Positions 95 through 29,856 of a stretch of 32,000 bases of DNA are shown here, piece by piece. The translations under genes and the position numbers were made by a program. The notes beneath the pieces were generated by a model. It was not told the DNA's origin. It was given only the letters and a program-made list of their open reading frames with translations, and ran no database searches. Position 1 is the first letter of the stretch. Every line of letters starts with the position of its first letter. The DNA comes from Desulfocapsa sulfexigens DSM 10523 (GTDB taxonomy: Bacteria > Desulfobacterota > Desulfobulbia > Desulfobulbales > Desulfocapsaceae). Location: contig NC_020304.1 of NCBI RefSeq assembly GCF_000341395.1, positions 2,550,001-2,582,000 on the forward strand. The letters run 5' to 3'.

Positions 95-1696
95 TTATAT
101 CTCCATCGTATTTTGGGGGTATTCAGGGATGGTGACTGTAAAGGTGGTTCCAGTTCCTTCTTCACTTGTAACGGCTACCGTTCCTTTCATTTTACCAACG
201 AGAGTATAGGTGACGGACAGGCCAAGGCCTGTTCCTACCCCGACATCTTTAGTTGTGAAAAAAGGATCAAAGATGTGAGTCAGAATATCTTCAGCAATCC
301 CTGTGCCTGTGTCCGTAAATGTGAATCGAAGCTGCTGCTCTATCATTTCGGAGCGTATGTGCAATGAGCCGCCGTCAGGCATTGCCTGGATAGCATTGAG
401 ACCAAGGTTTACAAAAATCTGTTTCAAGGCCTCTGCGTCGACATAGCATTCCTGCTCAATACTGTTTTCCTGGTGAATAACAATGCCTTTTAATTTGTAA
501 GAAAGGAGTTCGAGGCATTCACCCAGCAGAGTCGCCACGTTTATTTTACGTAATTGTAACGGCTCCTGCCTGCCAAAATTGAGGAGTTGACGCATGGTGT
601 GCTCTATTTGTTTCAGTCCTTTGTGGAGAAGGGGGAGGTACCGTTCATGCATTTCAAAATCTTCTGGATTTTCCCGCATGGATTTGACCAGATTAAGCAT
701 TCCCCCAAGTGGATTATTGACTTCGTGGGCAATACCTGCTGAGAGGATCCCCATGGAGGCCATTTTCTCGTTGAACAGAGTCTGTTGCCTGGTAGTTTCG
801 ATCTCTTTCTGGTAGCGGACAATACGCTGACAGAGTTCTGAAAAATGATCACTGAGGTGGCCAATCTCATCGTTACCGAATGGTAGCATCAGCTGGTCTG
901 GTTCTGTTTCCGGAAAGGATTTTATGGCGGTGGAGAGTCTGTCAAGTCTGCTGACAACGAGGGTGTTGAACATAATTAACAGGGTTATGGAAACCAGGAC
1001 AAAGCTGATAAATCCAATGATAAAAAGAGACCTGTTATTTGCCTGTATTTTCTCATCGGCCCAGGCGATAGGGATGGTGATTGACAGGGCTCCTCGTATG
1101 TCGCCCTGGCTGTAACCATGGCGGGCATGGCATCCCAGACATGAGTCTTTGGTCTCAAGAGGGGCCATATAGCGTACAACACGGCCCTGGGGAGTGTCCC
1201 TGATTGCGATAGACTCTAAAAAACCATGATCGAAGTTTATCATACAGAGTTTTTCAAATTCATCTGGACCGTTTTCGGGATTAACAGGATGCAGACTGGT
1301 AACGCGGAAACTGCCAAGACCTTTATCCTGCGAATATTCGGAGAGTTCCCTGGTGACCATTGCCGGATTTCGCATCACATATTCATTCCCCTCCTGATCC
1401 CTGATGCTTGGCAGATCAAGGTATGGATTCTTGTTCACGGTATCCTTTCTGATAACGAAGAGTCCATTATGTTCAGAAACCCATTGCCTGGTAATAAGAA
1501 TCTGATTGTAGAGCATACGCGCCTGCTGTTGAGCCTGTAAAATAATCAGTTCATTATCAACCAGGGAAGTTCTGTAGAGAAAAACCATATAGGAGACAGA
1601 AATTATGGTGCCAATGGCCACTATGAACTTACCGCGCAGGGAAAACTTAGATTCCATCCACAGGTAAAGGGTTCTGAAACTGATAATTGATTTCAT
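95..1696 (-). CDS. Sensor histidine kinase with periplasmic haem-c (DUF3365/Tll0287-like) sensor domain, HAMP, HisKA and HATPase_c
   Basis: 533-aa ORF. Two hydrophobic helices (FIVAIGTIISVSYMVFLY and SLFIIGFISFVLVSITLLIMF) flank a roughly 190-aa loop. The loop carries the DUF3365 pattern (ITRQWVSEHNGLF ... NPENGPDEFE ... RYMAPL ... CLGCH ... GDIRGALSITIP), including one CXXCH. An H-box (AGIAHEVNNPLGG) and a G-box (GTGLGLS) follow. Confidence 0.9.
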   Translation of the reverse strand: MKSIISFRTLYLWMESKFSLRGKFIVAIGTIISVSYMVFLYRTSLVDNELIILQAQQQARMLYNQILITRQWVSEHNGLFVIRKDTVNKNPYLDLPSIRDQEGNEYVMRNPAMVTRELSEYSQDKGLGSFRVTSLHPVNPENGPDEFEKLCMINFDHGFLESIAIRDTPQGRVVRYMAPLETKDSCLGCHARHGYSQGDIRGALSITIPIAWADEKIQANNRSLFIIGFISFVLVSITLLIMFNTLVVSRLDRLSTAIKSFPETEPDQLMLPFGNDEIGHLSDHFSELCQRIVRYQKEIETTRQQTLFNEKMASMGILSAGIAHEVNNPLGGMLNLVKSMRENPEDFEMHERYLPLLHKGLKQIEHTMRQLLNFGRQEPLQLRKINVATLLGECLELLSYKLKGIVIHQENSIEQECYVDAEALKQIFVNLGLNAIQAMPDGGSLHIRSEMIEQQLRFTFTDTGTGIAEDILTHIFDPFFTTKDVGVGTGLGLSVTYTLVGKMKGTVAVTSEEGTGTTFTVTIPEYPQNTMEI

Positions 1697-1933: not shown

Positions 1934-1950
1934 AGGTACACTTTTTGCTA
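1934..1950 (+). promoter_or_regulatory. Candidate sigma-54 (-24/-12) promoter for the cytochrome/Hao operon
   Basis: aGGtACacttttTTGCta has GG at 1935-1936 and GC at 1947-1948, separated by exactly 10 nt as in TGGCAC-N5-TTGC, and the TTGCT -12 element is intact. It lies about 128 nt upstream of the GTG start at 2076 and faces a two-component system. The match to the -24 element is partial. Confidence 0.45.
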
Positions 1951-2075: not shown

Positions 2076-2630
2076 GTGGAGAAGAAGTATAAATCAAGTG
2101 ACTATGCGCATGTCCTGAGATTAGCGGTGATTCTTGTTGGTGCCGTGGCTCTTGGACTGTTAGTAAGGGGAATGTTTCTTCCCGATACCATGGGCCAGTA
2201 TGGTCATTATCGGGGAAGTGATCTGGTGGACCAGCGTAACGTTGAAATAAGAAGCCACACCAACGAGTCGTGCTACGAGTGCCATCGTCCAATCAGACTC
2301 ATTCATAAAGCCGGTGTTCATAAAACAGTGTCTTGCGAGTTCTGCCACGGCCCCTATGCGGATCATGTAAAAGACGACAAATATGTTGCAAAGATGCCGG
2401 TTACAAGAGGCATGGAGATAAAAACACTCTGTCTTCGCTGCCATAATAAGATTATCCGGGCTCGTCCTGAGGAATCCATCAAGGTTGTTGCCATGCCGCA
2501 GCATCTTGAAGAGAAGAAGGTGAACGTGGAGCATAACTGTAATCAGTGTCATATGGTTCATGATCCATTGCTCTGGATAAAGGCTGCCTACGAAATGATG
2601 GGTATGGAGATGAAGGAGGAGAAGAAGTAA
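2076..2630 (+). CDS. Membrane-anchored tetrahaem c-type cytochrome (cytochrome c3-family/Cbc-like electron-transfer subunit)
   Basis: GTG start 5 nt after the RBS AAGGGGAGG. N-terminal hydrophobic anchor VLRLAVILVGAVALGLLV. Four CXXCH motifs (CYECH, CEFCH, CLRCH, CNQCH). The stop overlaps the next start (TAATG). Confidence 0.85.
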   Translation: MEKKYKSSDYAHVLRLAVILVGAVALGLLVRGMFLPDTMGQYGHYRGSDLVDQRNVEIRSHTNESCYECHRPIRLIHKAGVHKTVSCEFCHGPYADHVKDDKYVAKMPVTRGMEIKTLCLRCHNKIIRARPEESIKVVAMPQHLEEKKVNVEHNCNQCHMVHDPLLWIKAAYEMMGMEMKEEKK

Positions 2631-3433
2631 TGATTGATATACAAAAAGAAATACAGAAAGACCGTCGTGCCTTCATCAAGAACGTCCTCAGTGGTACCAT
2701 TGCCGGGTCACTGCTTATGGTCATTCCTGCCGGAGCTGCACTTGACCAGCGTTTACCGGAACAAATTTCAGGCATAAGGGGAGATGATTCACCTTTCACT
2801 GAGAAGAAATTTGCCTTTGTAGTGGATGTTACAGCCTGTATCGGTTGTGGATCCTGCTGTGTTGCAGACAAAAATGAGTATAATGTTCCCGACGGCAACT
2901 ACCGTACCTGGGTTGAAAGGTACATTATTGACGACCACGATGAGGTCTTTGTTGACTCACCCAATGGTGGCCTTGATGGCTACACCGAAGAAAGAACGGA
3001 TATTCCTTATCCGGTTCGGGACACCTTTTTTGTCCCCAAACTCTGCAATATGTGTGAGAAACCCTCCTGTGTTCAGGTATGTCCTGTGGGGGCGACATAC
3101 AAGACCGAAGACGGTTTTATACTTGTTGACAAGAATCGCTGCGTCGGTTGCGGCTACTGTATTCAGGCCTGTCCCTATTCGGTGCGTTTTCTGAATCCCA
3201 TAAGCAAAACCGCTGAAAAATGTACCTGGTGCTATTCGCGGGTGCGTCAGGGGTTGTTACCGGCCTGTGTCAATGTCTGTCCTGTGCATGCGCGTAAATT
3301 CGGTGATCTGAATGATAAAACGTCCGAAGTGTATAAGCTTTTACGTGAACCCCACGTGATTTCCGTACTTAAGCCGGGTATGGGGAACCAGCCAGCGCTT
3401 CATTACCTTGGATTGAGAAGGGAGGTGGTCTAA
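2630..3433 (+). CDS. Tat-exported 4Fe-4S ferredoxin-type subunit (NrfC/PsrB/DmsB/HybA family)
   Basis: Twin-arginine leader KDRRAFIKNV. Four Cys groups: CIGCGSCC, CNMCEKPSCVQVCP, CVGCGYCIQACP and CTWCY...CVNVCP. Translationally coupled on both sides. Confidence 0.9.
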   Translation: MIDIQKEIQKDRRAFIKNVLSGTIAGSLLMVIPAGAALDQRLPEQISGIRGDDSPFTEKKFAFVVDVTACIGCGSCCVADKNEYNVPDGNYRTWVERYIIDDHDEVFVDSPNGGLDGYTEERTDIPYPVRDTFFVPKLCNMCEKPSCVQVCPVGATYKTEDGFILVDKNRCVGCGYCIQACPYSVRFLNPISKTAEKCTWCYSRVRQGLLPACVNVCPVHARKFGDLNDKTSEVYKLLREPHVISVLKPGMGNQPALHYLGLRREVV

Positions 3434-4626
3434 TGAGCGTAGCAGCCCATGGCGAGACTGTCGCCGCAATTTCAAATTTTATTTTTCCCAATGATCTTCA
3501 TGTTCACTGGAGCCTGATGATCGTCCTGTATCCTTATATTACAGGGCTTGTAGCCGGTGCCTTTATCGTCTCCTCCCTGTATCATGTCTTTCATATAAAG
3601 GCATTAAAACCAGTGGCCAGGTTTTCACTCCTTTTTGCACTCGCTTTTCTTATCTGTGCAACCTGGCCTCTGCTCAACCATCTTGGACATCCGGAACGCG
3701 CGCTGTCGATGATGCTTACTCCAAATCCAACATCTGCAATGGCAGGTTTTGGTTACATCTACTCAGCCTATTTTATTGTCCTCCTGCTTGAGATTATCTT
3801 TATTTTCAGGCCTGTTGTGGTGGGTTTGAGAGAGAAGGCCACAGGCTTTATGAGGGTGCTGTACGGAATCCTTGCCATTGGAAGTGACAATGTATCTGAG
3901 AAGGCGTTGAAAATTGACCATAAGATTATCGCGTTTCTAGCTGCCATCGGTATCCCCATGGCCTGTGTCCTCCATGGCTATGTTGGATTTATCTTTGGCG
4001 GTATTAAGGCCAATCCTCTGTGGGCAACACCACTTATGCCCCTTATCTTTCTGCTATCTGCATGTGTATCCGGTATTGCCGGGATTATTCTTACTTATAT
4101 CCTGCTGATGAAGATTTCCGGGAGAGCTATAGATATGGATTGTGTCCAGACACTTATCAAGTTTCTCTGGGGATTCTTTATTCTTGATTTTGTTTTTGAG
4201 ATGCTTGAGTTGTTTTCGCATTTCTATATGGCAACACATCACTGGCATACCCTTGAAACACTGTATTCAGGACCACTGTTTAACACTTTCTGGGTTTTTC
4301 AGGTTGGAATCTTCTCTGTGATCCCCTTCTTCCTGCTGATGTTTATGAGTCTGATCCGCTTTAAGGATGGATTACTGCTCTTCTTTGCACCCATCGTTTC
4401 CATCATGATCCTTTTGCAGGTACTGCTTATGCGCTGGAACGTTGTTGTCGGTGGACAGTTGATGTCTAAAAGTGAACGCGGTGCCACTACGTTTCATCCA
4501 ATGTGGCTCGAGAAAGAGGGTATTCTGCCAGCGATAATTATCATGATAGCTCCCGTTGTCATCCTCTGGATAATCGGCAAAGTTCTGCCATTCTGGGTGG
4601 ATGATGAGGGCGTTGAAGCGGTTTAG
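3433..4626 (+). CDS. NrfD/PsrC-family polytopic membrane protein (putative quinol-interacting subunit)
   Basis: 397 aa, hydrophobic helices throughout and no Cys motifs. It sits immediately after an NrfC-type FeS gene, as in the nrfCD, psrBC and dsrOP arrangements. TAATG start overlap at 3431-3435. Confidence 0.85.
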   Translation: MSVAAHGETVAAISNFIFPNDLHVHWSLMIVLYPYITGLVAGAFIVSSLYHVFHIKALKPVARFSLLFALAFLICATWPLLNHLGHPERALSMMLTPNPTSAMAGFGYIYSAYFIVLLLEIIFIFRPVVVGLREKATGFMRVLYGILAIGSDNVSEKALKIDHKIIAFLAAIGIPMACVLHGYVGFIFGGIKANPLWATPLMPLIFLLSACVSGIAGIILTYILLMKISGRAIDMDCVQTLIKFLWGFFILDFVFEMLELFSHFYMATHHWHTLETLYSGPLFNTFWVFQVGIFSVIPFFLLMFMSLIRFKDGLLLFFAPIVSIMILLQVLLMRWNVVVGGQLMSKSERGATTFHPMWLEKEGILPAIIIMIAPVVILWIIGKVLPFWVDDEGVEAV

Positions 4627-4641
4627 AAGAAACCCTGGTTA

Positions 4642-4677
4642 CCCTTCAGCCATCTTCTTTTTGAGGGGGCTGGAGGG
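4642..4677 (+). other. Intercistronic stem-loop between the NrfD-like gene and the octahaem gene
   Basis: cccttcagcc (4642-4651) pairs with ggctggaggg (4668-4677): 10 bp including one G-U, with a 16-nt loop. No U-tract follows, so it is not a canonical terminator. Confidence 0.3.
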
Positions 4678-4763
4678 GTATAAAGTTGTTTTACAAGACA
4701 CGTTTTTGTGAGAGCCGGCACTAACCGGTAAATTATAAATTTTCCTATGGGAGGAAAGAAAAC

Positions 4764-6350
4764 ATGCAATATTGGAAGACATATCTTTCGATGGCAGCGC
4801 TTGGATTAATGATTGCTAGCCCTTCATTTGCAACGACTAAAGCATCCACGAATACTCAGGACGAAGCGATTAAAGAGGCAAACATCAAGTGTATCAACTG
4901 CCATCAGAAAGAAAACTACTCACTGGTTATGCAGTGGAAAAACTCTCCCCATGCAGCGGCCCAGGATGGCTCAGTTGCCTGTTTCAACTGCCATGCTGCT
5001 GATGAAGGTGATGAGTTGGGCTATATGCATGAAGGGGCATTAATAAAGACCATTATAACCCCCAAGGACTGCGGGTATTGTCATGCCGATGAAGTGAAAC
5101 AGCAGGCACCTTCTCATCACGCTTCTGCCGGTCAGATTATGGCCTCCCTGGATAACGTCGTAGGCGAGGTTATCTGTTCCATGGAAGACAAGGCCGATGC
5201 GGTAAATGGCTGTTGGCAGTGCCATGGTTCTGTTATTAAAATCCAGAAAGGTGCTGATGGTAAACCACTTTTGAATCAGCACAAAGCTGTTATGCTCGAT
5301 CCCATGACCTATCCCAACTCTGGTATTGGGCGTCTCCATCCGGATGGAACCAAAGGTGCCTGTAATGCCTGTCATGGTAAGCACTCATTTAAGGCTTCCA
5401 CAGCTCGTCAGCCTGAGAACTGCGGAAAATGCCATCTTGGCCCTGATCACCCACAGGCTGAGATTTATCTCGAGTCCAAGCATGGTATTGCCTATTTTAC
5501 CGCCACCCGTGATAGGGGGATGAATGGTATGAATATTCATAAATCCGGTAAATGGGTACTTGGTAAGGACTATTACACAGCTCCTACCTGCTCCACTTGT
5601 CACATGGGCTCCTATATGAAGTCAGATGGTTCTGTTGCACCGAACACCCATAATGTTGGTGACCGTATTTCCTGGACTCTTCGTCCCAAGGTATCTGTTA
5701 AACTGAACCGTGTTGAATTTGAAGACGGTACTCAGAAAGATATCCCTGGTGATATTGCCCCTCAGCCTGGACAGCTTATCAAGTACAAGGAATTCAAATT
5801 TGTAGACGATAAGTGGAAGGAAGTACCCGTGGAAAAAGAAGCCACCAAGGTTGTTGCCTGGAGTGAGCGTCGCGACAATATGAAAGCTGTTTGTAAGCAG
5901 TGTCATGGTGAGCAGAAGGTGGATAACTTCTACACCCAGTTTGACGCTCTCGTTGTAACCTACAATGAGAAGTTTGCAAAACCTGCTGGTAAATTGTACG
6001 GAATGGCAATGGAAGATGGTCTGATCCACGGATCAACCTTTCATACCGAGCTTGGATGGCATTGGTGGGAACTCTGGCATCATGAAGGGCGTCGTGCCCG
6101 TCACGGTGCTGCCATGCAGGGACCGGATTATACCCATTGGCACGGAATGTATGATGTTGCTCATAACTTCTATTTCAAATTCATTCCAGAACTTATGCAT
6201 CTTGCCGAGTCCAAAGGAATGGGTGAAAAATACAAGAAAATTGTTGGCGAACTTCTCGCTAAACCCGAGCACCAGTGGTACCAGAAAGGCTTTGGTGAAG
6301 ATGTAATGAAAGACATCAAAGCTCAGGAAAAAGCACGTTACAAGCAGTAA
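4764..6350 (+). CDS. hao: Periplasmic octahaem cytochrome c, hydroxylamine oxidoreductase (HAO)-family, probable reductive Hao-type enzyme
   Basis: RBS GGGAGGAAAG. Sec signal MAALGLMIASPSFA-TT. Exactly eight CXXCH motifs (CINCH, CFNCH, CGYCH, CWQCH, CNACH, CGKCH, CSTCH, CKQCH), with no CXXCK and no CX15CH. A C-terminal block, WELWHHEGRRARHGAAMQGPDYTHWHG, is one I recognise from HAO-family proteins. The family call is from memory of motifs, not a search. Confidence 0.75.
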   Translation: MQYWKTYLSMAALGLMIASPSFATTKASTNTQDEAIKEANIKCINCHQKENYSLVMQWKNSPHAAAQDGSVACFNCHAADEGDELGYMHEGALIKTIITPKDCGYCHADEVKQQAPSHHASAGQIMASLDNVVGEVICSMEDKADAVNGCWQCHGSVIKIQKGADGKPLLNQHKAVMLDPMTYPNSGIGRLHPDGTKGACNACHGKHSFKASTARQPENCGKCHLGPDHPQAEIYLESKHGIAYFTATRDRGMNGMNIHKSGKWVLGKDYYTAPTCSTCHMGSYMKSDGSVAPNTHNVGDRISWTLRPKVSVKLNRVEFEDGTQKDIPGDIAPQPGQLIKYKEFKFVDDKWKEVPVEKEATKVVAWSERRDNMKAVCKQCHGEQKVDNFYTQFDALVVTYNEKFAKPAGKLYGMAMEDGLIHGSTFHTELGWHWWELWHHEGRRARHGAAMQGPDYTHWHGMYDVAHNFYFKFIPELMHLAESKGMGEKYKKIVGELLAKPEHQWYQKGFGEDVMKDIKAQEKARYKQ

Positions 6351-6375
6351 CAGGTTGTTCTCCTGCTAGTATTAC

Positions 6376-6410
6376 GCTCCGGAATCTTTCTGGTTCCGGG
6401 GCGTTTTATT
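6376..6410 (+). terminator. Rho-independent terminator after the octahaem gene
   Basis: gctccggaa (6376-6384) pairs with ttccggggc (6394-6402): a 9-bp GC-rich stem with one G-U and a 9-nt loop, followed by gttttatt. Confidence 0.55.
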
Positions 6411-6534: not shown

Positions 6535-7209
6535 ATGAACTTCTCAACAACAATGCAAACCAAGACTCTTTTTCTCACACTGTCCCTGTTTTTTTATACC
6601 TGTGGAATTGGAGTCAGTCAGACAGTTGACTATTCGGCTCTGTCTAAAACTGAATTGCAAAACAGGATTGCAGGTCTTGAACTTGGCCTCGGATCTTATG
6701 TTATTGGCAAAAAAATGACCCCAGAACAGCTGGAAATTTCTAAAAAAAATAATGATTACAAGGCCTATCCAGGAACAGTAAAATTCAAAGATGGAGATAT
6801 CTTTGTTATTGCTGATGCGCAGTCAGATGTCGTGATAGCGGTTTACAAACGAAATAAAAAAGCTAACAAAAACGATTTTAAAGTAACGATCAGCGAGCTT
6901 ATGATGCTCTATGGAGAGCCAACTGCTGAGGCCCATGGAAAAACTATTTATTGGAATTATGGTGAAGACGGATTGATATCCGAGGAGCTTTACAGGACGG
7001 TTAAATCGCAGGGGATGCTTAATACCCTCGTTGTCCTGGCGACTGTAAAATTCACCTCCTCAGAAAATATTGAAACGATAACCGACATGATTGAGATGAT
7101 GAACAAGAAAAATCAGCAGTCAGAAAAAGTACAAAAAAGTGATATCACCAGCGATAATTATATCATGATTCAGTCGGATCTGCTTACCCAAAAATATATG
7201 GATAAATGA
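6535..7209 (+). CDS. Hypothetical secreted protein (ORFan, no recognisable domain)
   Basis: RBS AAAGGAAAA. N-terminal hydrophobic signal-like segment TLFLTLSLFFYTCGIG. Lys/Asn-rich, and the DNA is visibly A/T-rich. The stop overlaps the next ORF (ATGA). Confidence 0.6.
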   Translation: MNFSTTMQTKTLFLTLSLFFYTCGIGVSQTVDYSALSKTELQNRIAGLELGLGSYVIGKKMTPEQLEISKKNNDYKAYPGTVKFKDGDIFVIADAQSDVVIAVYKRNKKANKNDFKVTISELMMLYGEPTAEAHGKTIYWNYGEDGLISEELYRTVKSQGMLNTLVVLATVKFTSSENIETITDMIEMMNKKNQQSEKVQKSDITSDNYIMIQSDLLTQKYMDK

Positions 7210-7232
7210 ACTCCCTTTTGCAAGGAAACACT

Positions 7233-7532
7233 ATGATACAAAGACTCCTATTAGTGATAAGTCTCGTCCTGTCCAGTTCTGGGGCAATAGCTGCGGATCT
7301 GCCAGATAGTTCTGATTTGCCCAGAATGCCCGATGCATACCGCAATAATGACTACAAGGATCTCAGTAAGAGAAATCCCTATGGGATGTCAGTTTACGAT
7401 ATTGCAGAGCGAAAGGCCGAAGAGGATATCTTCGGATCTGAAGTTATTTCCCTTGAAGAGTCCAGAAGAATACTGGAGGAACGAAAGGCGAAGAACAAAG
7501 AACAGGCAGGTGTTGTACAGGAAAAGGAATAA
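7233..7532 (+). CDS. Hypothetical small secreted protein (ORFan)
   Basis: Start chosen at the ATG preceded by AAGGA, giving the signal peptide MIQRLLLVISLVLSSSGAIAA-DL. The longest ORF would begin at 7206. The mature part is charged and low in complexity. Confidence 0.5.
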   Translation: MIQRLLLVISLVLSSSGAIAADLPDSSDLPRMPDAYRNNDYKDLSKRNPYGMSVYDIAERKAEEDIFGSEVISLEESRRILEERKAKNKEQAGVVQEKE

Positions 7533-7650: not shown

Positions 7651-8031
7651 ATGAAAAAACTTTTTGGTTTTAACCTGTTGTTAGCTGTTTTTTTTCTTTC
7701 ATGGGTCTGTGCTGGCGCAGGTGACAGCGGTAGTGTTGGAGTTTCGGCCACGTCAGCTCATCCTGAAATAACGGAGCAGGAAAAGCTTCTGCCATGCTTT
7801 GAATGTCACAAGGAAGCCACACCCGAAATCTACAATGAATGGTTTGATTCATTGCATGGTATCGGTATGGTCAAGTGCTATCAATGTCATGGAACTTATG
7901 AAAATATGAAGATAGAGCCCGAGGCTTCTGACTGTATGGTTTGTCATGTTGACCAGATAAAAAAATGTCCTCAAGACAAGAAGTGCTGGTCTTGTCATAC
8001 TGCCCATACTTTTAAACGCAATGCGAAATAG
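7651..8031 (+). CDS. napM: Small periplasmic tetrahaem cytochrome c, NapM-like
   Basis: RBS GGGGAGG. Signal peptide present. Four CXXCH motifs (CFECH, CYQCH, CMVCH, CWSCH) in 126 aa. It lies directly upstream of napA, as napM does in the Desulfovibrio desulfuricans napCMADGH cluster (recalled, not searched). Confidence 0.7.
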   Translation: MKKLFGFNLLLAVFFLSWVCAGAGDSGSVGVSATSAHPEITEQEKLLPCFECHKEATPEIYNEWFDSLHGIGMVKCYQCHGTYENMKIEPEASDCMVCHVDQIKKCPQDKKCWSCHTAHTFKRNAK

Positions 8032-8040
8032 GAGGAAGCC

Positions 8041-10428
8041 ATGACACAGTCAAGACGTGAATTTCTGAAACGAACTGCAGCACTGAGTGCGGCGGCCTAT
8101 GTTGGAGTGACCCTGCCTTTTGACGAAAAAGGACTGGTATATGCAGCCAGTGAAACTGTCTGGCACCGCGGATCATGCAGACTTTGTGGTGTGGGATGCA
8201 GGGTTGAACTGGGGGTAAAGAATGGAACCCCCGTTGCCCTTCGTGGAGTACCCGAGTCACGAACTAATTTTGGTTATGTATGTATGAAGGGGATGCACTT
8301 TTGGAAGGTGATGAACCATGCCGACCGACTGACAACTCCTCTCTATCGAGCCAGTAAAAAAGACAAATTCAAACCTATATCCTGGGATGAGGCACTTGAT
8401 ATCGCCGCAGATAAATTTGCTACTGCGGTCAAGGAACATGGAAACGATTCCGTGGCCTACTACGGATCAGGCCAGGCCCTTACCGAAGAAACGTATTTCT
8501 TCCAGAAAATGTTTCGCGGAGGGCTGCAGACGAATAATGTTGAAGGTAACCCAAGGCTCTGTATGGCCAGTGCCGTTGGTGGTTATCTGACCTCCTTTGG
8601 TGCTGATGAGCCGATAGGTGGCTATGCCGATATTGAAAAAGCGGATTGTATCTTTATTATTGGATCCAATATGGCTGAGGCGCATCCCGTTGTTTTCCGG
8701 CGGGTGATGAGAAGAAAACTGGATAACCCGGACGTTACTGTCATTAACGCTGATCCCCGTATTTCCCTTACTTCCCGTATTGCCGATATCCATCTGCAGT
8801 TCCATCCGGGAACCGATCTTGCCCTGTTAAATGCCATGGCCCATGTCATTGTTAAAGAGAAGCTGTACGATGAAGCTTTTCTCAAGGACTACGTAGCGAT
8901 TAAAAAGGGGAAGGCCGTTTCCATCGACTTTGCGGAATATGAGCAGTTTCTGGAGAAGTATACTCCTGAATACGCTGCAAAGATCATGGGAGGGAAGGTG
9001 ACTCCCGATCAGATTCGTGAGGTTGCACGAAGGTTTGCCACTTCCAAGGGGACATTAAGTTTCTGGACCATGGGGCTGAATCAGCGAAAACAGGGGGTTT
9101 GGGCAAACAATCTGGTACACAATCTCCATATTCTTACAGGTCAGCTCTTAAAAGAGGGAGCAGACAGCCTTTCACTTACCGGCCAGCCAAATGCCTGCGG
9201 TGGTGTTCGAGAAGGTGGCGGACTCTGTCATATCCTGCCAGGACACCGTCTGGTGGCAAAAGAAAAACTGCGCAACCAGGTAGAAGAGGCCTGGGGTATT
9301 CCCAAGGGGCGCATACCACCCAAACCCGGTTATCACACCATGGCCATGTTCACCGCGGTGAATGAGAAAAAAATAAAGGCAATGTGGGTACATTGTACCA
9401 GTCCGGTACAGAGTCTGCCAAACTGTAACCTCTATAACGAGGGAATGGCTAAAGATGATTGTTTTATGGTTTGTACCGATATCTTTCCCACTCTGACCAC
9501 GGAGCTTGCAGCAAACCTCATTCTGCCCACTGCGTTTCATTTTGAGAAAACCGGAGTATATGGCTGCACTGAGCGACGATCTCAGATCACACGCAAGGCC
9601 ATAGATCCACCAAAAGGTGCCAAGCCTGAGGTCTGGATTATCAGGGAGTGGGGCAGGAAGCTCGCCGAGAAACTGAACGACCCGGTCATTGCCCAGTGTA
9701 TAAAACCCTTTGAGGGGCTTGAAGAAGGTTATGAACTTCCCAAAGCTATCTGGGATGAGTATTCACAGAAGCTTACCAAGGGGCGTGATAATGATCTGCG
9801 TGGTGCAAGCTATGAGGTGTTGGAGCAGATGTACGATGGAGTGCAGTGGCCAGCCCCGACAGAGGCGTTTGCCCTCACTGGCGGTACTGTGAAGAAATTT
9901 GTCCGTGGCATGGACCCCATGGCTGACAGCCATGGTAAGGATGATAAGCCGTATCAGTTTTATGGCCCGGCCCACCCGGATCAGAAACTCTGGTTGTGGC
10001 AGCGTCCACAGGCCGATCCTGAAGAGATTCCAGACGCGGAATATCCTTTCTATCTCTCCACGGGGCGCATTATTGACCACTGGCACACCATGAGTATGAC
10101 CGGGAGAGTCAAAGAGTTGCTGCGTGCCAACCCCTATTCCTATATTGAGGTTAATCCTGCAGATGCCAAACGCATGGGAATCAAACCGGGAGATATGGTG
10201 GAGATTACCTCCAGGCGTGGAACCAATATCATGCCGGCCAAGGTGTATGAAGGCCCCATTGAGGGAATGGTCTTTGCTTACTGGCATGATCAGCATCCGG
10301 ATCGGATGATTAATAAGGTCACTAAAGATGCCTATGATCCCGGATCCAAGGAGCCTGAATTTAAGATCTGTGCCTGCAGGATCAAGAGAGTTTCCGGTCC
10401 TAAGGCCCTGAAACCCTATATTGTCTGA
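8041..10428 (+). CDS. napA: Periplasmic nitrate reductase catalytic subunit NapA (molybdopterin oxidoreductase)
   Basis: RBS AGGAGG. Tat leader SRREFLKRTAALSAAAYVG. N-terminal 4Fe-4S motif CRLCGVGC...C. 795 aa with molybdopterin-oxidoreductase blocks (IGSNMAEAHPV, RIIDHWHTMSMTG). napD, napG and napH follow. Confidence 0.96.
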   Translation: MTQSRREFLKRTAALSAAAYVGVTLPFDEKGLVYAASETVWHRGSCRLCGVGCRVELGVKNGTPVALRGVPESRTNFGYVCMKGMHFWKVMNHADRLTTPLYRASKKDKFKPISWDEALDIAADKFATAVKEHGNDSVAYYGSGQALTEETYFFQKMFRGGLQTNNVEGNPRLCMASAVGGYLTSFGADEPIGGYADIEKADCIFIIGSNMAEAHPVVFRRVMRRKLDNPDVTVINADPRISLTSRIADIHLQFHPGTDLALLNAMAHVIVKEKLYDEAFLKDYVAIKKGKAVSIDFAEYEQFLEKYTPEYAAKIMGGKVTPDQIREVARRFATSKGTLSFWTMGLNQRKQGVWANNLVHNLHILTGQLLKEGADSLSLTGQPNACGGVREGGGLCHILPGHRLVAKEKLRNQVEEAWGIPKGRIPPKPGYHTMAMFTAVNEKKIKAMWVHCTSPVQSLPNCNLYNEGMAKDDCFMVCTDIFPTLTTELAANLILPTAFHFEKTGVYGCTERRSQITRKAIDPPKGAKPEVWIIREWGRKLAEKLNDPVIAQCIKPFEGLEEGYELPKAIWDEYSQKLTKGRDNDLRGASYEVLEQMYDGVQWPAPTEAFALTGGTVKKFVRGMDPMADSHGKDDKPYQFYGPAHPDQKLWLWQRPQADPEEIPDAEYPFYLSTGRIIDHWHTMSMTGRVKELLRANPYSYIEVNPADAKRMGIKPGDMVEITSRRGTNIMPAKVYEGPIEGMVFAYWHDQHPDRMINKVTKDAYDPGSKEPEFKICACRIKRVSGPKALKPYIV

Positions 10429-10452
10429 TCAATACCTTATCCTTAACACAAG

Positions 10453-10483
10453 GCTGTCTCCCTGAAACCTTCAGGGAGACAGC
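10453..10483 (+). other. Perfect 14-bp stem-loop between napA and napD
   Basis: gctgtctccctgaa (10453-10466), loop acc, ttcagggagacagc (10470-10483): a perfect inverted repeat. Only TT follows, so it is more likely an mRNA stabiliser, processing site or attenuator than a full terminator. Confidence 0.6.
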
Positions 10484-10508
10484 TTGTATCCAGTTCGAGA
10501 GGAATTCT

Positions 10509-10823
10509 ATGGTAATTGGTGGTTTTGTCGTGCAAACGCTGCCCGGAGAACGCAATGTGATTGTGGAAAAACTGACATCTCTGCAGGGGGTTGAGGTGTA
10601 TGGTGCTGATAAGAAAGGAAATATTGTAACCGTGGTTGAGGCCGACTCCTCTGATGCTCTGGGGGAGGTGGTCAAGTTGATGGAAAAGCTGGACGATGTT
10701 CTTAATGTGGGGATGACCTACATGAACATGGAAGACGAAGCTGAACAGATTGCCAGTGGTGAAAGTACTCCCGGAGTGTTTACAGGGAGGAAACAAAAAC
10801 AGGCCTCCTTTGAAGCGTCGTGA
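10509..10823 (+). CDS. napD: NapD, NapA-specific Tat proofreading chaperone
   Basis: 104 aa. MVIGGFVVQTLPGERNVIVEKLTSLQGVEVYG...IVTVVEA is the typical NapD ferredoxin-like fold signature, and the gene sits between napA and napG. Confidence 0.85.
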   Translation: MVIGGFVVQTLPGERNVIVEKLTSLQGVEVYGADKKGNIVTVVEADSSDALGEVVKLMEKLDDVLNVGMTYMNMEDEAEQIASGESTPGVFTGRKQKQASFEAS

Positions 10824-11406
10824 ATTTATAAAAATAGCTACCGGCGCTTTTTCTGCGACGGTTCTCCTCCCTGCAGCTGCCAGAGCCTGGAGTCTGGTGA
10901 AATCCCCGGTTGGGACTAACAGGCTGCGTCCTCCTGGAGCGGTTCCGGAAGAAATATTTGCCGGTAAGTGTATCCGCTGCGGGCGTTGTGTGGAGGTTTG
11001 TCCTTACCGTTCAATCGCCCTCCTTGACATTCGATCCGGTATTTATGCCGGAACACCAATTATTGCAGCGGAAAAGATCCCCTGTTACCTCTGTATGAAG
11101 TGCGTGGAGGTCTGTCCCACCGGTACCCTTCTGAAAGTCCGGCAGGATGAGACCCGTATGGGAATGGCTGTTGTGAATAAGCATACCTGTTACAGCTGGC
11201 AGAGCCTCACCATATGCAGAACCTGTTTTGATGTCTGCCCATATAAAGAAAAGGCCATCAGCCTGGATCAGTTACGTCCTGTTGTGCTGGAGGATTTCTG
11301 CGTGGGATGCGGAATTTGTACACATGCCTGTCCGGTGACAGCAGAAGATGGAGAAAAGGCAATTACCATTGAACCCATCTATGCCCGGGAGCGTGTGCAA
11401 TGGTAG
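10750..11406 (+). CDS. napG: NapG, Tat-exported 4x[4Fe-4S] ferredoxin
   Basis: Tat leader KRREFIKIATGAF. Four CxxCxxCxxxCP groups: CIRCGRCVEVCP, CYLCMKCVEVCP, C..CRTCFDVCP and CVGCGICTHACP. The start is uncertain. The longest ORF starts at TTG 10750 and overlaps napD by 74 nt. In-frame GTG 10756/10759 or TTG 10810 are alternatives. Confidence 0.85.
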   Translation: MPVVKVLPECLQGGNKNRPPLKRREFIKIATGAFSATVLLPAAARAWSLVKSPVGTNRLRPPGAVPEEIFAGKCIRCGRCVEVCPYRSIALLDIRSGIYAGTPIIAAEKIPCYLCMKCVEVCPTGTLLKVRQDETRMGMAVVNKHTCYSWQSLTICRTCFDVCPYKEKAISLDQLRPVVLEDFCVGCGICTHACPVTAEDGEKAITIEPIYARERVQW

Positions 11407-12239
11407 AAAAAAAGAAGAACAGGATCCATGTAATACGTTTTCTGGTTCTAACCGGGGCGTTTCTTCTTATCCTGGTCAATCCATTTCTCAACTATTACCT
11501 GCAAATAAATTTTATCCAGGGATGGTATCAGTCCTTTGGAATCGGGAACCTCTGGTTTGTGTCACCTCTGGAAGGCCTGGAAAGTCTCCTGGTTACAAAA
11601 CATCTTTTCCTTCCCACCCTCATCGGTATGCTGCTTCCAGTATGTCTCGCTGCCTTACTCGGGTCGGTGTACTGCAGCTGGCTCTGTCCCATTAGTTTTT
11701 TTCATGAAATTCTCGATTTTCTGCGCAGGAAGGTGACCCGTAAAAAACGGCTCAGGGATAGAATGGTCCTTTCACGTCGTATTCTCTGGTACGCCCTGAT
11801 AGCCGAAATTTTGCTGACTCTCATTCTTGCGGCTCCCATATTCGTTTTTATGTCGCCGCCAGGCCTTGTGGGGCGTGAGATAATGATCGCCGTTTTTTTT
11901 CACACTCTGGCCCTGGAGGGGATTATCATTCTTTTTGTTCTTATGATGAACCTGGTAACTAGGAGATTTTACTGTCGTTATCTCTGTCCTCTGGGGGCTA
12001 CTCTAAATATCATTGGCAGCAGGAGGAAGCTGCGGGTTGTTCAGGATCTCCAGGCCTGCACAGCCTGTAGTCGGTGTGATCAGATCTGTCCTCTGGGGCT
12101 GACTCCATCCCTGGGTATGGCGGAGTCTATCTATTGCTGGAACTGCGGAGAGTGCACAACGGTCTGTCAACCAGGTGCTCTTATGTACCACTGGGGAGAA
12201 AAGGTCGTTCTTGAGCAGGTAAAGCCAGACTCTTTGTAA
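11400..12239 (+). CDS. napH: NapH, membrane-bound polyferredoxin quinol dehydrogenase subunit
   Basis: The ATG overlaps the napG stop. Four hydrophobic helices. Two CxxCP motifs (CSWLCP, CRYLCP). C-terminal clusters CTACSRCDQICP and CWNCGECTTVCQ. Confidence 0.9.
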   Translation: MVEKKKNRIHVIRFLVLTGAFLLILVNPFLNYYLQINFIQGWYQSFGIGNLWFVSPLEGLESLLVTKHLFLPTLIGMLLPVCLAALLGSVYCSWLCPISFFHEILDFLRRKVTRKKRLRDRMVLSRRILWYALIAEILLTLILAAPIFVFMSPPGLVGREIMIAVFFHTLALEGIIILFVLMMNLVTRRFYCRYLCPLGATLNIIGSRRKLRVVQDLQACTACSRCDQICPLGLTPSLGMAESIYCWNCGECTTVCQPGALMYHWGEKVVLEQVKPDSL

Positions 12240-13991: not shown

Positions 13992-15239
13992 ATGGATCTG
14001 ACAATCCATCAAAACTGCCCTTCCTGTGGTGCCCCTATAGAACTTCACGAAGCAGACCGGCTGATTCGTTGTCCTTATTGTGAGGTGAAAAACTTTATGG
14101 TAAGCCGGGGAGTGCTCCGCTTTGTTCTCCCTGACAGGGCGCCGGAGAATATTGAACGCAGTGAAATGTTTTATGCGCCCTATCTCCGCTTTAAAGGCAA
14201 TATCTACTATTGCAAAGGAAAACATCAGAAATACAAGGTCGTTGATACTACTCAGCAGGGAATGAATGCCAGAGCCTTACCGCCTTCTCTTGGTCTGAGA
14301 CCACAGGCAATGCCGGTTTCTTTGGTGACTGAAGAGATACAAGGTACTTTCCTCCGTCAGACTGTGAAGGCTAAAACACTCCTTGAACGGGCAGCACTGC
14401 TCACAGTGATTGATTCCGAAAAGATTAAAGCTCCCTTTTATCATCGGGCCTATATTGGCGAATCCTTGAGCTGTATTTATCTGCCTTTGTATATTAAGGA
14501 TGAGATCCTCTATGATGCTGTGACCAATAAACCCCTGGCAAGTGGTGGATCTGCCGAAAATATGCGAAAGAGCGGGAGTGGCTATCATCCAACCTGGACA
14601 CCGCATTTTCTCGCCACTCTTTGTCCACAATGTGGAGATGCACTCACGGGAGAGCATGACAGTTTGATTCTTTCCTGCCACAACTGTCATTCTTCCTGGG
14701 CCGAACAACAGGGGAAATTTCATTCCATTGATTGGAGTTGCGTTGTTTCAGCGGAGACTTCTATGTATTATCTTCCGTTCTGGAAAATACGGGTGCGCTC
14801 AACAGCCTTTGGACTCGAAACATTTGCTGATTTTTTGCGAATAACCAACCAGCCGCTGGTAATTCAGGAAAAACATACAGAGATGGATCTTGTATTCTGG
14901 GTACCATCGTTTAAACTCAGGCCTTCAACATTTTTACGGATGGGGAAGAATATTACACTCAGGCAGGCAAAGATTCCAGATGGTGAACCAAAAATGGTAC
15001 AGAGGATGCATCCTGTTACCCTGCAGAGAAAAGAAGCTATCCAGTCCTTGAAGAGTATTCTGGCAGGTGCTGCTTTAAATAAAAAGAAACTCCTGCCGCT
15101 CCTTCCTGATTTGAGCTTTCAGCCAATGTCCACTGAATTGATATATCTGCCATTTTCTGATAAGGGACACGATTTTGTTCAGGAACAGACAGGGATCTCC
15201 CTGGCGAAATCGGTTCTCCACTTTGGCCGGAAACTGTGA
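13992..15239 (+). CDS. Hypothetical protein with two zinc-ribbon modules (internal duplication)
   Basis: 415 aa. It contains CPSCGAPIELHEADRLIRCPYC and CPQCGDALTGEHDSLILSCHNC, with identical C-x2-C-x14-C-x2-C spacing. Each is followed by an aromatic motif (FYAPYLRFK / YYLPFWKIR) and later by IYLP(L/F). No transmembrane segment or signal peptide. Confidence 0.7.
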   Translation: MDLTIHQNCPSCGAPIELHEADRLIRCPYCEVKNFMVSRGVLRFVLPDRAPENIERSEMFYAPYLRFKGNIYYCKGKHQKYKVVDTTQQGMNARALPPSLGLRPQAMPVSLVTEEIQGTFLRQTVKAKTLLERAALLTVIDSEKIKAPFYHRAYIGESLSCIYLPLYIKDEILYDAVTNKPLASGGSAENMRKSGSGYHPTWTPHFLATLCPQCGDALTGEHDSLILSCHNCHSSWAEQQGKFHSIDWSCVVSAETSMYYLPFWKIRVRSTAFGLETFADFLRITNQPLVIQEKHTEMDLVFWVPSFKLRPSTFLRMGKNITLRQAKIPDGEPKMVQRMHPVTLQRKEAIQSLKSILAGAALNKKKLLPLLPDLSFQPMSTELIYLPFSDKGHDFVQEQTGISLAKSVLHFGRKL

Positions 15240-19859: not shown

Positions 19860-20017
19860 ACTGAAAACCCTGAAGCTGAAAGTGGAGATGATTGGAAAAA
19901 TATAGGGCAATAGTAGCAAACTTCCGCAGAGAATAGCCTTGATTCAGGTCAAGAACCAAAGATATTGTGGTAAAATATGTTTTTTTGATCTGGTTCGCCT
20001 GGTCGGCCCGCAAAAGA

Positions 20018-29821: not shown

Positions 29822-29856
29822 ATCGTGAAACTCCAATGTCTACTTTTTTCTGTCGA

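Follow-up and report, generated by a model that had tools for sequence, protein, structure and literature searches.

Genes of the locus

The 32-kb window, that is the whole stretch of DNA analysed here, stems from Desulfocapsa sulfexigens DSM 10523 and carries an operon of four forward-strand genes, UWK_02289-02292. Gene 1 (UWK_02289, 2076-2630, 184 aa) encodes a membrane-anchored tetrahaem cytochrome c of the c3/c7 type, with one transmembrane helix at residues 12-30, four CXXCH motifs and a match to the Pfam family Cytochrom_c3_2 (1e-7). Two further assignments were rejected: as NapC/NirT it reaches 18 bits, under the cut-off of 24.1, and as NrfH (PDB: 2j7a) it gives an E-value of 0.42. Gene 2 (2630-3433, 267 aa) encodes a Tat-exported PsrB/NrfC-type protein, with a twin-arginine leader (DRRAFIK) and 16 cysteines in four ferredoxin-type groups, predicted to hold four [4Fe-4S] clusters. 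It matches Fer4_11 (3e-26) and its top PDB match is PsrB (2vpw_B, 2.7e-45); its scores stay under the equivalog cut-offs of TtrB, NrfC and DsrO, with TtrB the highest of them. Gene 3 (3433-4626, 397 aa) codes for an integral membrane protein of the NrfD/PsrC family with about 9-10 transmembrane helices (Pfam: PF03916 NrfD, 2.6e-37), again under the equivalog cut-offs, here of NrfD and DsrP. The periplasmic octahaem cytochrome c of the HAO/IhOCC clade is encoded by gene 4 (UWK_02292, 4764-6350, 528 aa) and has a Sec-type leader and exactly eight CXXCH motifs. TAATG stop/start overlaps at 2628-2632 (genes 1/2) and 3431-3435 (genes 2/3) provide translational coupling. The reading frames, the coupling and the motif counts given for genes 1-4 in the initial annotation were all recovered from the sequence.

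A terminator-like hairpin (6374-6404, forward strand; 13 pairs, 8 of them GC, then TTTATT) lies 24 nt past the stop of gene 4 and suggests that genes 1-4 may form one transcription unit, with read-through possible. On the same strand follow o5 (UWK_02293, 6535-7209, 224 aa) and o6 (7206-7532, 108 aa), each with a signal peptide and without an assigned function, and then the periplasmic nitrate reductase genes napMADGH (7651-12239), recognised from ORFs and motifs: napM 7651-8031, napA 8041-10428, napD 10509-10823, napG 10750-11406 and napH 11400-12239. The napM product is a tetrahaem and NapD is matched by Pfam. The distance of 1.3 kb from gene 4 to napMADGH, as first annotated, holds with the start at 7651, but this apparent gap contains the two signal-peptide ORFs o5 and o6, which had been omitted. 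None of the genes nrfA, nir, nor and hcp was found across the 32-kb window, which extends to its full length the earlier remark that no nrfA was in view. For o5 there is no Pfam or NCBIfam match, and its AF2 model (pLDDT 84) has no significant PDB neighbour.

Family placement and active site of the octahaem cytochrome

Gene 4 had been proposed to belong to the HAO family, and profile and PDB searches agree. It scores 74 bits against Pfam PF13447 (cut-off 21.9; 1.4e-20) and its PDB matches are limited to IhOCC, HAO, HDH and HAOr; Otr, MccA, NrfA and ONR gave no matches in the PDB searches, and a motif scan of gene 4 detected neither CXXCK nor CX15CH. The closest solved relative is IhOCC (PDB: 4qo5), with an E-value of 5e-41 and 2e-55 by profile, and canonical HAOs match more weakly (1e-12 to 1e-19 overall, about 1e-13 where IhOCC gives 5e-41). 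With the gene 4 model, an AF2 model that is poor in the haem core and has a TM of 0.30 to 4qo5, Foldseek returned 4qo5 as the sole significant match. Judged by these matches, gene 4 is a member of the HAO superfamily that lies nearer to IhOCC than to canonical HAO. IhOCC has been grouped with HAO and HDH in clade 1 and is described as an octahaem enzyme that reduces nitrite and has no P460 (PMC9250108).

The block WHHEGRRARHGAAMQGPDY, residues 438-456 of gene 4 and part of a conserved C-terminal block at 436-463, had been taken as a mark of the HAO family. This could not be upheld, as the WHHEGRR...PDY block shows no significant alignment to NeHAO or KsHOX; by sequence comparison it is a signature of the IhOCC-like branch and not of canonical HAO. 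The catalytic haem is predicted to be that of the fourth motif, C150-H154. Without exception, the 64 family members share the Asp228-His229 pair (GPDHP), which matches Asp267-His268 of NeHAO in the alignment, and the conserved features also include Arg307 and the C-terminal block with Tyr456.

Of the 64 family members aligned, 63 have Tyr456, as do almost all of the 80 loci surveyed below, sister clade included. The Arcobacteraceae locus L039 has a Phe in its place and IhOCC, which is collinear here, has a Trp and no P460. The loop that contains Tyr456 connects the last long helices and is topologically equivalent to that of the cross-linking Tyr467 in NeHAO, and the local motifs are Y-T-H-W at Tyr456 and Y-T-E-G-W at Tyr467. 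No significant alignment pairs the two tyrosines, and three methods gave three different registers. HAO relatives that lack the cross-link are reductases (PMC8042395), and the initial annotation expected the cross-linking tyrosine to be absent; no supported alignment to HAO reaches the region, and a near-invariant Tyr456 stands in the equivalent loop. As a counterpoint to a reductive reading, its position there leaves room for an oxidative P460-type site.

Conservation of the gene order

We surveyed the neighbourhoods of 80 loci. Gene 1 was found in 48, gene 2 in 51 and gene 3 in 54 loci, and o5 lies directly 3' of gene 4 in every one of 51 loci. The order and strand g1-g2-g3-g4-o5 are constant in 48-54 loci, and the carriers belong to Desulfobulbales, Desulfobacterales and Campylobacterota. 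Chance falls far short of explaining an arrangement that is kept by 48-54 genomes, independent of each other and distinct at species level. The linkage of the octahaem to a tetrahaem/NrfC-type/NrfD-type module, first noticed in this one stretch, is thus conserved across three orders or phyla. As far as gene order can tell, the unit is one of five genes with o5 as the fifth co-conserved member; o6 is restricted to the Desulfocapsa loci.

In 16 of the 80 loci napA is found at most 8 kb from the module; these belong to Desulfobulbales, Arcobacteraceae/Sulfurospirillaceae, KSB1 and Ignavibacteriae. On the Thermosulfurimonas contig nap also adjoins the module, so that the adjacency seen in Desulfocapsa recurs independently in several lineages. 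The Desulfobacterales loci mostly have the module without nap nearby, and no sulfur-metabolism gene is a recurring neighbour among the 80 loci. A sister clade from Binatia, KSB1, Ignavibacteria and FCB-group MAGs has an N-terminally anchored octahaem that is paired with Rieske and cytochrome b proteins.

Promoter and regulation

Divergent from the operon, on the reverse strand, lies a sensor histidine kinase gene (95-1696), whose product has a periplasmic Tll0287-like domain (Pfam: PF11845, 8e-21) with a CLGCH haem-c motif, followed by HisKA and HATPase_c, both also matched. Its orthologues, with 74-80% identity, hold the equal position in loci L001-L007, and in L003 a gene for an NtrC-type sigma-54 activator comes after the kinase gene. 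The Thermosulfurimonas cluster is also flanked by a Tll0287-like kinase, so a haem-sensor kinase adjoins the cluster in two phyla.

Between the kinase gene and gene 1, three forward-strand copies of the palindrome G[CT]TAC[CT]-N4-[AG]GTA[ATG]C are located at 1747-1762, 1834-1849 and 1866-1881. The two proximal copies are kept in the alignment of all 8 Desulfocapsa loci, and the palindromes are candidate enhancer (UAS) sites for an NtrC-type regulator. They precede a sigma-54-type -24/-12 element of the form GG-N10-GC, AGGTACACTTTTTGCTA (1934-1950, forward strand), whose GG and TTGCTA vary in none of the 8 Desulfocapsa loci, and neither does their spacing. The number of sigma-54 patterns alone is at chance level within the window, and we call the promoter because of this conservation and the neighbouring sigma-54 activator in relatives. 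Expression would probably start from a sigma-54 promoter, controlled by an NtrC-type regulator together with the kinase that senses through its periplasmic haem-c domain.

Relation to described systems

The initial annotation placed the architecture outside the characterised ones. This stands for biochemistry, as we found no characterisation of an octahaem with a tetrahaem/FeS/NrfD module in the literature and the architecture is absent from a 2021 catalogue of NrfD-type complexes (PMC8076601), but the arrangement is not newly seen. An 11-gene cluster of the four genes, two periplasmic unknowns and napMADGH was described in 2016-2017 in Thermosulfurimonas dismutans (TDIS_0599-0609) and Dissulfuribacter thermophilus (DBT_2319-2329), and T. 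marina and strain F29 are further members (Mardanov 2016; Slobodkina 2017; Allioux 2022; PMC4911364, PMC5276818, PMC9676032). Its order is that found here: membrane cytochrome c, TtrB/NrfC-like FeS protein, NrfD-family protein, HaoA-like multihaem cytochrome, two unknowns and napMADGH. We confirmed the equal order on the Thermosulfurimonas contig (L081), whose octahaem shares 59% identity with gene 4. The host lineage differs (here Desulfocapsa, Desulfobulbales), as do the regulator, NtrC/sigma-54 here and OmpR-type in L081, and the second unknown gene, o6 here and an Alginate_exp-type protein in L081. [quoted passage not shown] From this genomic description the authors hypothesised nitrite reduction and kept a sulfur alternative (PMC4911364, PMC5276818, PMC9676032). 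The Desulfocapsa locus is another case of this cluster, known from genomes and with a hypothesised function.

IhOCC of Ignicoccus hospitalis (Igni_0955, PDB: 4QO5) resembles gene 4 in its pattern of eight haems, in an insertion located between haem 7 and haem 8 and in a C-terminal block that is collinear; it differs in being archaeal, in its identity of only ~23-30% and in the Trp for Tyr456. The epsilon-Hao of Epsilonproteobacteria (Haase et al. 2017), likened here by description, is an HAO-family octahaem without the cross-linking Tyr; it acts in vitro as a reductase of nitrite and of hydroxylamine, and it is tied to nap genes and NrfA-independent ammonification. In the reverse-HURM proposed for Nautilia profundicola the partner of Hao is the membrane tetrahaem CycB, whose gene is missing from T. 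dismutans and D. thermophilus. Gene 4, in contrast, is partnered by a tetrahaem that fails the NapC/NirT threshold and by an additional FeS/NrfD pair.

E. coli NrfABCD and Wolinella/Shewanella MccACD follow, as would the complex here, a route from menaquinol via an NrfC-type FeS protein and an NrfD-type membrane protein to a periplasmic multihaem reductase. Nrf has an extra cytochrome relay, NrfB, to which gene 1 is comparable, although it is a membrane-anchored tetrahaem and NrfB a soluble pentahaem. Gene 4 itself belongs to another family than NrfA and MccA, with no CXXCK, CX15CH or match, and genes 2 and 3 do not reach the NrfC and NrfD equivalog cut-offs. The anammox genes kuste4569-4574, which encode Rieske/cytochrome b complexes with an HAO-like octahaem subunit, likewise combine an HAO-family octahaem with a membrane module that oxidises quinol; the sister clade with its Rieske protein, cytochrome b and anchored octahaem resembles them, whereas the clade of the window has an NrfD-type module and its hosts are not anammox bacteria. 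Modules of the Geobacter Cbc type (e.g. CbcSTU) and the DsrJOP type consist of a membrane-associated multihaem cytochrome c, a periplasmic FeS protein and an NrfD-like protein. Unlike here, no HAO-family catalytic subunit is known to be encoded with them, and the DsrO and DsrP equivalog scores of genes 2 and 3 are below the cut-offs.

Proposed function and alternatives

On balance and with moderate confidence, we take the locus to encode a periplasm-facing, membrane-bound menaquinol:N-oxide oxidoreductase, which would most likely reduce nitrite from the adjacent Nap. In favour of this reading are the placement of gene 4 beside IhOCC, the invariant Asp-His pair, the constant gene order, the recurrence of nap as a neighbour, the ammonification of nitrate by T. 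dismutans and D. thermophilus and the haem-sensor kinase next to the cluster; that most Desulfobacterales loci have no nap nearby counts against it. Gene content, motifs, family placement and the conservation of synteny and promoter elements are shown by the sequences, and we infer the electron path, complex formation, direction, substrate and product from the protein families and the conservation of their gene order. The NrfD-type gene 3 product would oxidise menaquinol at a quinol/quinone site and pass the electrons to the four [4Fe-4S] clusters of gene 2, from where the membrane-anchored tetrahaem of gene 1 would relay them to gene 4. There the fourth haem, flanked by the Asp228-His229 pair, may form the substrate site, and nitrite could be reduced to ammonium or part-way via NO or hydroxylamine. 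o5 may be an accessory or assembly subunit. The quinol-oxidising Rieske/cytochrome b partner of the sister clade argues for the octahaem as terminal acceptor of quinol electrons. The gene 4 complex would be the likely "missing" nitrite reductase of NrfA-less ammonifying bacteria.

As a counterpoint to the nitrite reading, most carriers, the present host among them, are specialists of the sulfur cycle, and nitrate respiration is not known from the host of IhOCC, a sulfur reducer. Nitrite reduction in vitro is therefore weak evidence of the physiological substrate. With the electron route unchanged, the physiological substrate might be sulfite, tetrathionate, thiosulfate or polysulfide, and the complex would then be a counterpart of MccACD or Otr that serves the disproportionation or respiration of sulfur. 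Most carriers, including D. sulfexigens, disproportionate, reduce or oxidise sulfur (PMC3739170), octahaem relatives are promiscuous across N and S oxyanions (PMC9250108), and the original cluster authors retained this alternative; gene 2 scores top against TtrB and has PsrB as top PDB match, and many Desulfobacterales loci have no nap nearby. We nevertheless consider a sulfur substrate unlikely: across the 80 loci it is nap and no sulfur-metabolism gene that recurs beside the module, gene 4 has neither the MccA-type CX15CH nor a Cu-site signature and no Otr or MccA match in the PDB, and the Asp-His pair is typical of HAO enzymes that convert N compounds.

The N-oxide reading itself could take another form, in which the complex mainly detoxifies nitrite, NO or hydroxylamine rather than serving energy-conserving respiration. 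NrfHA has a detoxification role in sulfate reducers that are unable to respire nitrate, many sulfate-reducing Desulfobacterales carry the module without nap, and a dedicated haem-based sensor would fit the sensing of NO or nitrite stress. The tight linkage of napMADGH in several lineages and the growth of T. dismutans and D. thermophilus by nitrate ammonification make detoxification as the main role decidedly unlikely, although the two roles are not mutually exclusive.

NrfD-type modules can work in both directions, and those such as Qrc reduce quinone. An oxidative enzyme would carry a Tyr456-haem cross-link (P460-like), oxidise hydroxylamine, hydrazine or another reduced compound and feed the quinone pool through the module; this, and with it a new version of the hydroxylamine:ubiquinone redox module, we regard as very improbable. 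The near-invariant Tyr456 (63/64), with a loop and local motif that resemble those of NeHAO Tyr467, speaks for it, but the pairing has no significant alignment and three registers by three methods, and Phe in L039 and Trp in IhOCC, which has no P460, replace the residue. Moreover, quinol oxidation is the normal role of the Rieske/cytochrome b partner in the sister clade, the hosts are strictly anaerobic, no ammonia-oxidation genes were seen in the window, and the nap linkage favours a reductive pathway.

Least of all do we expect a non-catalytic conduit, a Cbc-type quinol:periplasmic cytochrome oxidoreductase with the octahaem as shuttle to Nap or extracellular acceptors: the tetrahaem/FeS/NrfD layout is like that of the Geobacter Cbc-type and DsrJOP modules, and the nap operon of the window lacks both NapB and NapC, but NapGH and NapM already give Nap an electron route, many genomes carry the module without nap, and the invariant Asp-His pair and other active-site-like residues would be unneeded in a pure shuttle.

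A four-gene operon for a tetrahaem, an FeS, an NrfD-type and an octahaem protein

Four genes on the forward strand encode the putative complex. Gene 1 (UWK_02289, 2076-2630, annotated as 'cytochrome c3 family') carries four CXXCH motifs and a single N-terminal TM helix, and gene 2 (2630-3433) combines a twin-arginine leader (DRRAFIK) with 16 cysteines that form four ferredoxin-type groups. Gene 3 (3433-4626) belongs to the NrfD family (Pfam: PF03916, E-value 2.6e-37) and has about 9-10 TM helices. Gene 4 (UWK_02292, 4764-6350, annotated as 'multiheme c-type cytochrome') has a Sec-type leader and exactly eight CXXCH motifs. TAATG overlaps connect gene 1 with gene 2 (2628-2632) and gene 2 with gene 3 (3431-3435). 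The four ORFs of the initial annotation, with their coordinates, motifs and overlaps, were all found in the window sequence. No nrfA, nir, nor or hcp gene was detected elsewhere in the 32-kb window. A strong terminator-like hairpin is positioned 3' of gene 4 at 6374-6404.

Of the proteins of genes 1-3, here called the module, those of genes 2 and 3 are recognisable at the broad family level, as Fer4_11 and NrfD in Pfam. The best solved relative of gene 2 in the PDB sequence search is PsrB (2.7e-45). Its top NCBIfam scores are to TtrB, NrfC and DsrO, each of them under the equivalog cut-off; for NrfC (TIGR03149) the score is 157.6 against a cut-off of 377.6. Gene 3 scores 64.2 with the NrfD equivalog (TIGR03148, cut-off 347.6), is also below the NCBIfam cut-off for DsrP and has zero matches among PDB sequences. 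For gene 1, the NapC/NirT model (Pfam: PF03264) gives 18 bits with a cut-off of 24.1, and the comparison to NrfH (2j7a_C) an E-value of 0.42. Judged by its sequence, gene 1 looks like a membrane-anchored c3/c7-type tetrahaem and not like a NapC/NrfH protein. In this the system differs from epsilon-Hao with its CycB-type tetrahaem partner. The earlier description of the layout as Cbc-like or DsrJOP-like is a fair account of how the module probably works, while membership in any named complex is unsupported.

Family placement of the octahaem protein

Gene 4 scores 74.1 bits with the HAO family model (Pfam: PF13447, gathering cut-off 21.9), aligns with Nitrosomonas HAO (NeHAO) and the HAO-family enzyme KsHOX by hhalign with 99.7% probability over residues 36-431, and has its eight CXXCH motifs in the order of the HAO superfamily. 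The CXXCK motif that marks the catalytic haem of NrfA and ONR is absent, as is the CX15CH motif of MccA haem 8. Among PDB sequences there was no significant NrfA or ONR match and no match to MccA, and Otr (1SP3) is missing from both the PDB sequence and the Foldseek match lists. The gene 4 family is large: the 90% collection holds more than 7,900 close matches, and at 50% identity there are 187 clusters (E-value <= 1e-30).

Within the superfamily the nearest relative is the Ignicoccus hospitalis octahaem IhOCC (PDB: 4QO5) and not a canonical HAO. IhOCC (4qo5_A) is by far the best solved relative, with E-values of 5e-41 for the single sequence and 2.3e-55 for the family profile, and the aligned stretches 67-304 and 368-470 take in almost the whole length with the C-terminal block. 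Kuenenia HAOr, NeHAO, HDH and KsHOX follow with 1e-12 to 1e-19 in the PDB sequence searches. The hydrazine dehydrogenase equivalog (NF052343) gives gene 4 only 59.6 bits at a cut-off of 900. In the Foldseek search with the AF2 model, 4QO5 was the sole significant match (E-value 6e-13), with a TM-score of only 0.30 because the model is haem-free. The model has a pLDDT of 76, with the haem core at residues 200-250 below 50, and with this low confidence and the TM-score to 4qo5 it was dropped for questions of geometry. IhOCC has been placed in one clade with HAO and HDH and described as a nitrite reductase that lacks the P460 cross-link, the Tyr-haem link of the catalytic haem (Soares et al. 2022, PMC9250108).

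A beta-rich insertion is predicted with pLDDT above 90 between haems 7 and 8 (residues ~311-365, nt ~5694-5858). It has no counterpart in NeHAO, where CXXCH motifs 7 and 8 are 52 residues apart compared to 103 in gene 4; the spacing in IhOCC is long too. The pMHC of cable bacteria was weighed as a possible instance of this system and not retained, as it is described as a sister of epsilon-Hao without a quinol module.

Previous descriptions of the cluster

The same gene order is already in print. Mardanov et al. 2016 described TDIS_0606-0609, located beside nap, as an oxidoreductase of unknown specificity (PMC4911364). In Thermosulfurimonas dismutans and Dissulfuribacter thermophilus, which they showed to form ammonium from nitrate without NrfA, Slobodkina et al. 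2017 reported an '11-gene cluster' made up of the four-gene locus, genes for two periplasmic proteins whose function is unknown, and the nitrate reductase genes napMADGH (PMC5276818). Their proposal was nitrite reduction by the four-gene locus, with conversion of sulfur compounds as the alternative (PMC5276818). The cluster is also on record for T. marina and strain F29 (Allioux et al. 2022, PMC9676032). The window matches the published order of cytochrome c, FeS protein, NrfD, HaoA-like multihaem protein, two periplasmic unknowns and napMADGH, and a Thermosulfurimonas contig has this order around an octahaem 59% identical to gene 4. Since both the cluster and the hypothesis have been published since 2016-2017, the claim of an unseen architecture was overstated. 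The interpretation proposed with that claim is partly supported: assignment to the HAO family, the link with the module and the role put forward are reasonable, and the closest relative is IhOCC and not canonical HAO.

Literature searches found no enzymology, expression data or genetics for the cluster and, by locus tag, no follow-up on TDIS_0606-0609 or DBT_2326-2329. It is included neither in a 2021 catalogue of NrfD-type complexes (PMC8076601) nor in the genome paper of Desulfocapsa sulfexigens. The system will not surprise specialists. What is added here is a fifth gene (o5), an alternative Rieske/cytochrome b partner, the sensor and promoter, and a C-terminal block that is conserved and contains Tyr456.

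Conservation and exchange of the partner module

Conservation was analysed in 80 species-level loci from a genome scan. The gene 4 clade, defined by at least 55% identity to gene 4, comprises 57 loci from Desulfobulbales, Desulfobacterales, Arcobacteraceae and Sulfurospirillaceae. Wherever the contig is long enough the order of genes 1 to 4 is intact, with L032 as the sole long locus without the module. The synteny survey asked for in the initial annotation bears out the coupling of the octahaem to nrfC/nrfD-like genes.

The sister clade, with 47-52% identity to gene 4, includes a subclade of Binatia, KSB1, Ignavibacteria and FCB-group MAGs in which a Rieske protein and a cytochrome b precede an octahaem with an N-terminal TM anchor. 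This arrangement is found in L059, L061-L063, L067, L068, L070, L075, L076 and L078 (for example L076:6299-9485), and nap genes are also adjacent in L076 and L078. These loci resemble the anammox Rieske/cytochrome b complexes with an HAO-like subunit. In the remaining sister-clade lineages no recognisable partner was found. As quinol-oxidising modules are interchanged between the clades, we argue from the gene content that the octahaem enzyme would receive quinol-derived electrons. In an uncultured deltaproteobacterial MAG (L072:6520-9233) two octahaem homologues, 36% and 57% identical to gene 4, stand in tandem, and no NrfCD-type module was detected upstream of them.

The 'gap' between gene 4 and napMADGH, which starts at 7651, is filled by two exported ORFs. 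The first, o5 (UWK_02293, 6535-7209), has a signal peptide, is annotated as 'hypothetical' and directly follows the octahaem gene in 51 of the 80 loci; the second, o6 (7206-7532), is restricted to Desulfocapsa. For o5 there was no Pfam or NCBIfam match and no significant PDB sequence match, and its AF2 model, a confident one (pLDDT 84), had no significant structural neighbour in a Foldseek search against the PDB. In the Thermosulfurimonas contig (L081:12280-13851) a 523-aa Alginate_exp-type protein, similar to outer-membrane beta-barrels, replaces o6 between the o5 homologue and nap.

Proposed function

The most likely reading, somewhat more probable than not, is that the complex is a menaquinol:nitrite (N-oxide) oxidoreductase. 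The NrfD-type subunit would oxidise quinol, electrons would pass from the FeS subunit via the anchored tetrahaem to the octahaem, and the octahaem would reduce the nitrite made by Nap, with o5 as an accessory factor. In 16 loci napA lies no more than 8 kb away; they include members of Desulfobulbales, both Campylobacterota families, KSB1 and Ignavibacteriae. In the neighbour clustering nap genes are the only other recurrent functional neighbours, next to regulators and tatC, and no recurrent sulfur-metabolism gene and no recurrent hcp, nor or nrfA was found beside the module.

That the enzyme is a sulfur-compound reductase, close to the published alternative and in keeping with the sulfur-cycling hosts, is improbable given these neighbours. 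A mainly detoxifying role, in which nitrite, NO or hydroxylamine would be removed, is less probable still.

Catalytic residues and the C-terminal block

A catalytic Asp-His pair directly follows the sixth haem motif, where CGKCHLGPDH of gene 4 is aligned with CATCHSGVDH. D228-H229, in GPDHP, is invariant in 64 of 64 sequences and is the counterpart of Asp267-His268 in NeHAO. The position of NeHAO Tyr334 is taken by Arg307, invariant in the gene 4 family. A non-catalytic conduit for electrons fits poorly with this invariant pair and is the least likely of the readings.

In the NeHAO reference sequence, 100% identical to 4fas_A, the cross-linking Tyr467 is located in ...GGWTYTEGW.... Statistically supported alignments of the gene 4 family with HAO end near residue 428, short of this region. 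A forced global hhalign alignment puts Tyr467 near residue 506 and a C-terminal-only alignment (E-value 0.69) near Trp434; as the two registers disagree and neither is significant, residue-level equivalents of Tyr467 were rejected. In all 80 genomes, those of the sister clade included, the block E436-x-WHHEGRRAR-x4-M-x2-PDY456-THWHG hardly varies, and Tyr456 is exchanged only once, to Phe in an Arcobacteraceae member (L039). The AF2 secondary structure places Tyr456 in the loop that joins the two final long helices, topologically equivalent to the loop that holds Tyr467 in NeHAO. IhOCC is collinear with gene 4 in this block and has Trp at the Tyr456 position.

Gene 4 probably does not have a Tyr-haem cross-link, a leaning that comes from the priors of an IhOCC-like protein and a reductive context. 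An oxidative P460-type enzyme that feeds electrons into the quinone pool, for which the location of Tyr456 could speak, is very unlikely.

Residues 436-463 (nt ~6069-6152) read EhWHHEGRRAR[HM][GA]A[AS]Mx[GA]PDYTHWHGMY and are nearly invariant in both clades. Besides the His required for bis-His ligation it has three to four further invariant His, and it has three invariant Arg. At position 447 His-Gly is found in Desulfobulbales, Campylobacterota and the sister clade, and Met-Ala in Desulfobacterales.

Regulation

A divergent histidine kinase gene (95-1696, reverse strand) encodes a periplasmic Tll0287-like domain with a CLGCH haem-c motif. In related Desulfocapsa loci the kinase is followed by an NtrC-type sigma-54 activator (L003:1311-2645, reverse strand), and the corresponding gene would lie just beyond base 1 of the window. 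Upstream of gene 1 a sigma-54-type element, GG-N10-GC (1934-1950), is invariant in an alignment of eight Desulfocapsa loci; the pattern has 21 matches across the window with 18 expected. Two copies of the palindrome GTTACC-N4-GGTAAC (1834-1849 and 1866-1881) are conserved in the same alignment and a third copy is found at 1747-1762. A Tll0287-like kinase (L081:19180-20679) is also found beside the Thermosulfurimonas cluster, there together with an OmpR-type regulator.

Implications for ammonification

Taken together, the tetrahaem, NrfC-type, NrfD-type and IhOCC-like octahaem proteins and o5 might form a class of NrfD-type respiratory complex of its own, widespread and possibly conserving energy. 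Tentatively, this class would supply sulfur-cycling Desulfobacterota, Thermodesulfobacteria and Campylobacterota with the NrfA-independent menaquinol:nitrite reductase that has long been sought. Its active site would be unlike those of HAO and NrfA, with Asp-His, the invariant Arg307 and the near-invariant WHHEGRRAR...PDYTHWHG block, possibly contributed by a neighbouring subunit and possibly with a Tyr456-haem link; o5 would be an accessory protein of new fold, and control would be by the periplasmic haem-c sensor kinase. This combined reading is more doubtful than the nitrite-reducing role by itself.

For NrfA-independent ammonification the system is a good candidate, and one that can be tested. 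Several cultured bacteria, T. dismutans and D. thermophilus among them, convert nitrate to ammonium without NrfA and are therefore overlooked by surveys based on nrfA counts. If the module is the responsible nitrite reductase, it would provide a marker gene set for a hidden part of the DNRA that takes place in sulfidic sediments and hydrothermal systems, and an HAO-family catalytic subunit would join the catalogue of NrfD-type quinol-linked complexes. Handles for testing are the cultured and fully sequenced D. sulfexigens DSM 10523 (UWK_02289-02293), Desulforhopalus singaporensis DSM 12130, and the defined promoter and sensor system, which can be used to test for the inducing signal.

Other genes in the window

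A 415-aa ORF without a Pfam match at E-value <= 1e-5 is located at 13992-15239 (forward strand), with an SPFH/zinc-ribbon protein gene on one side and a deaminase gene on the other. Genes that support periplasmic redox enzymes are found at 17496-18691 (reverse), 18834-19919 (reverse), 23023-23517 and 28967-31239 (reverse), and include tatC and tatA/B, moaC, a NapH-like Fer4_5 membrane FeS protein and the CcsA/ResB pair for System II cytochrome c biogenesis.
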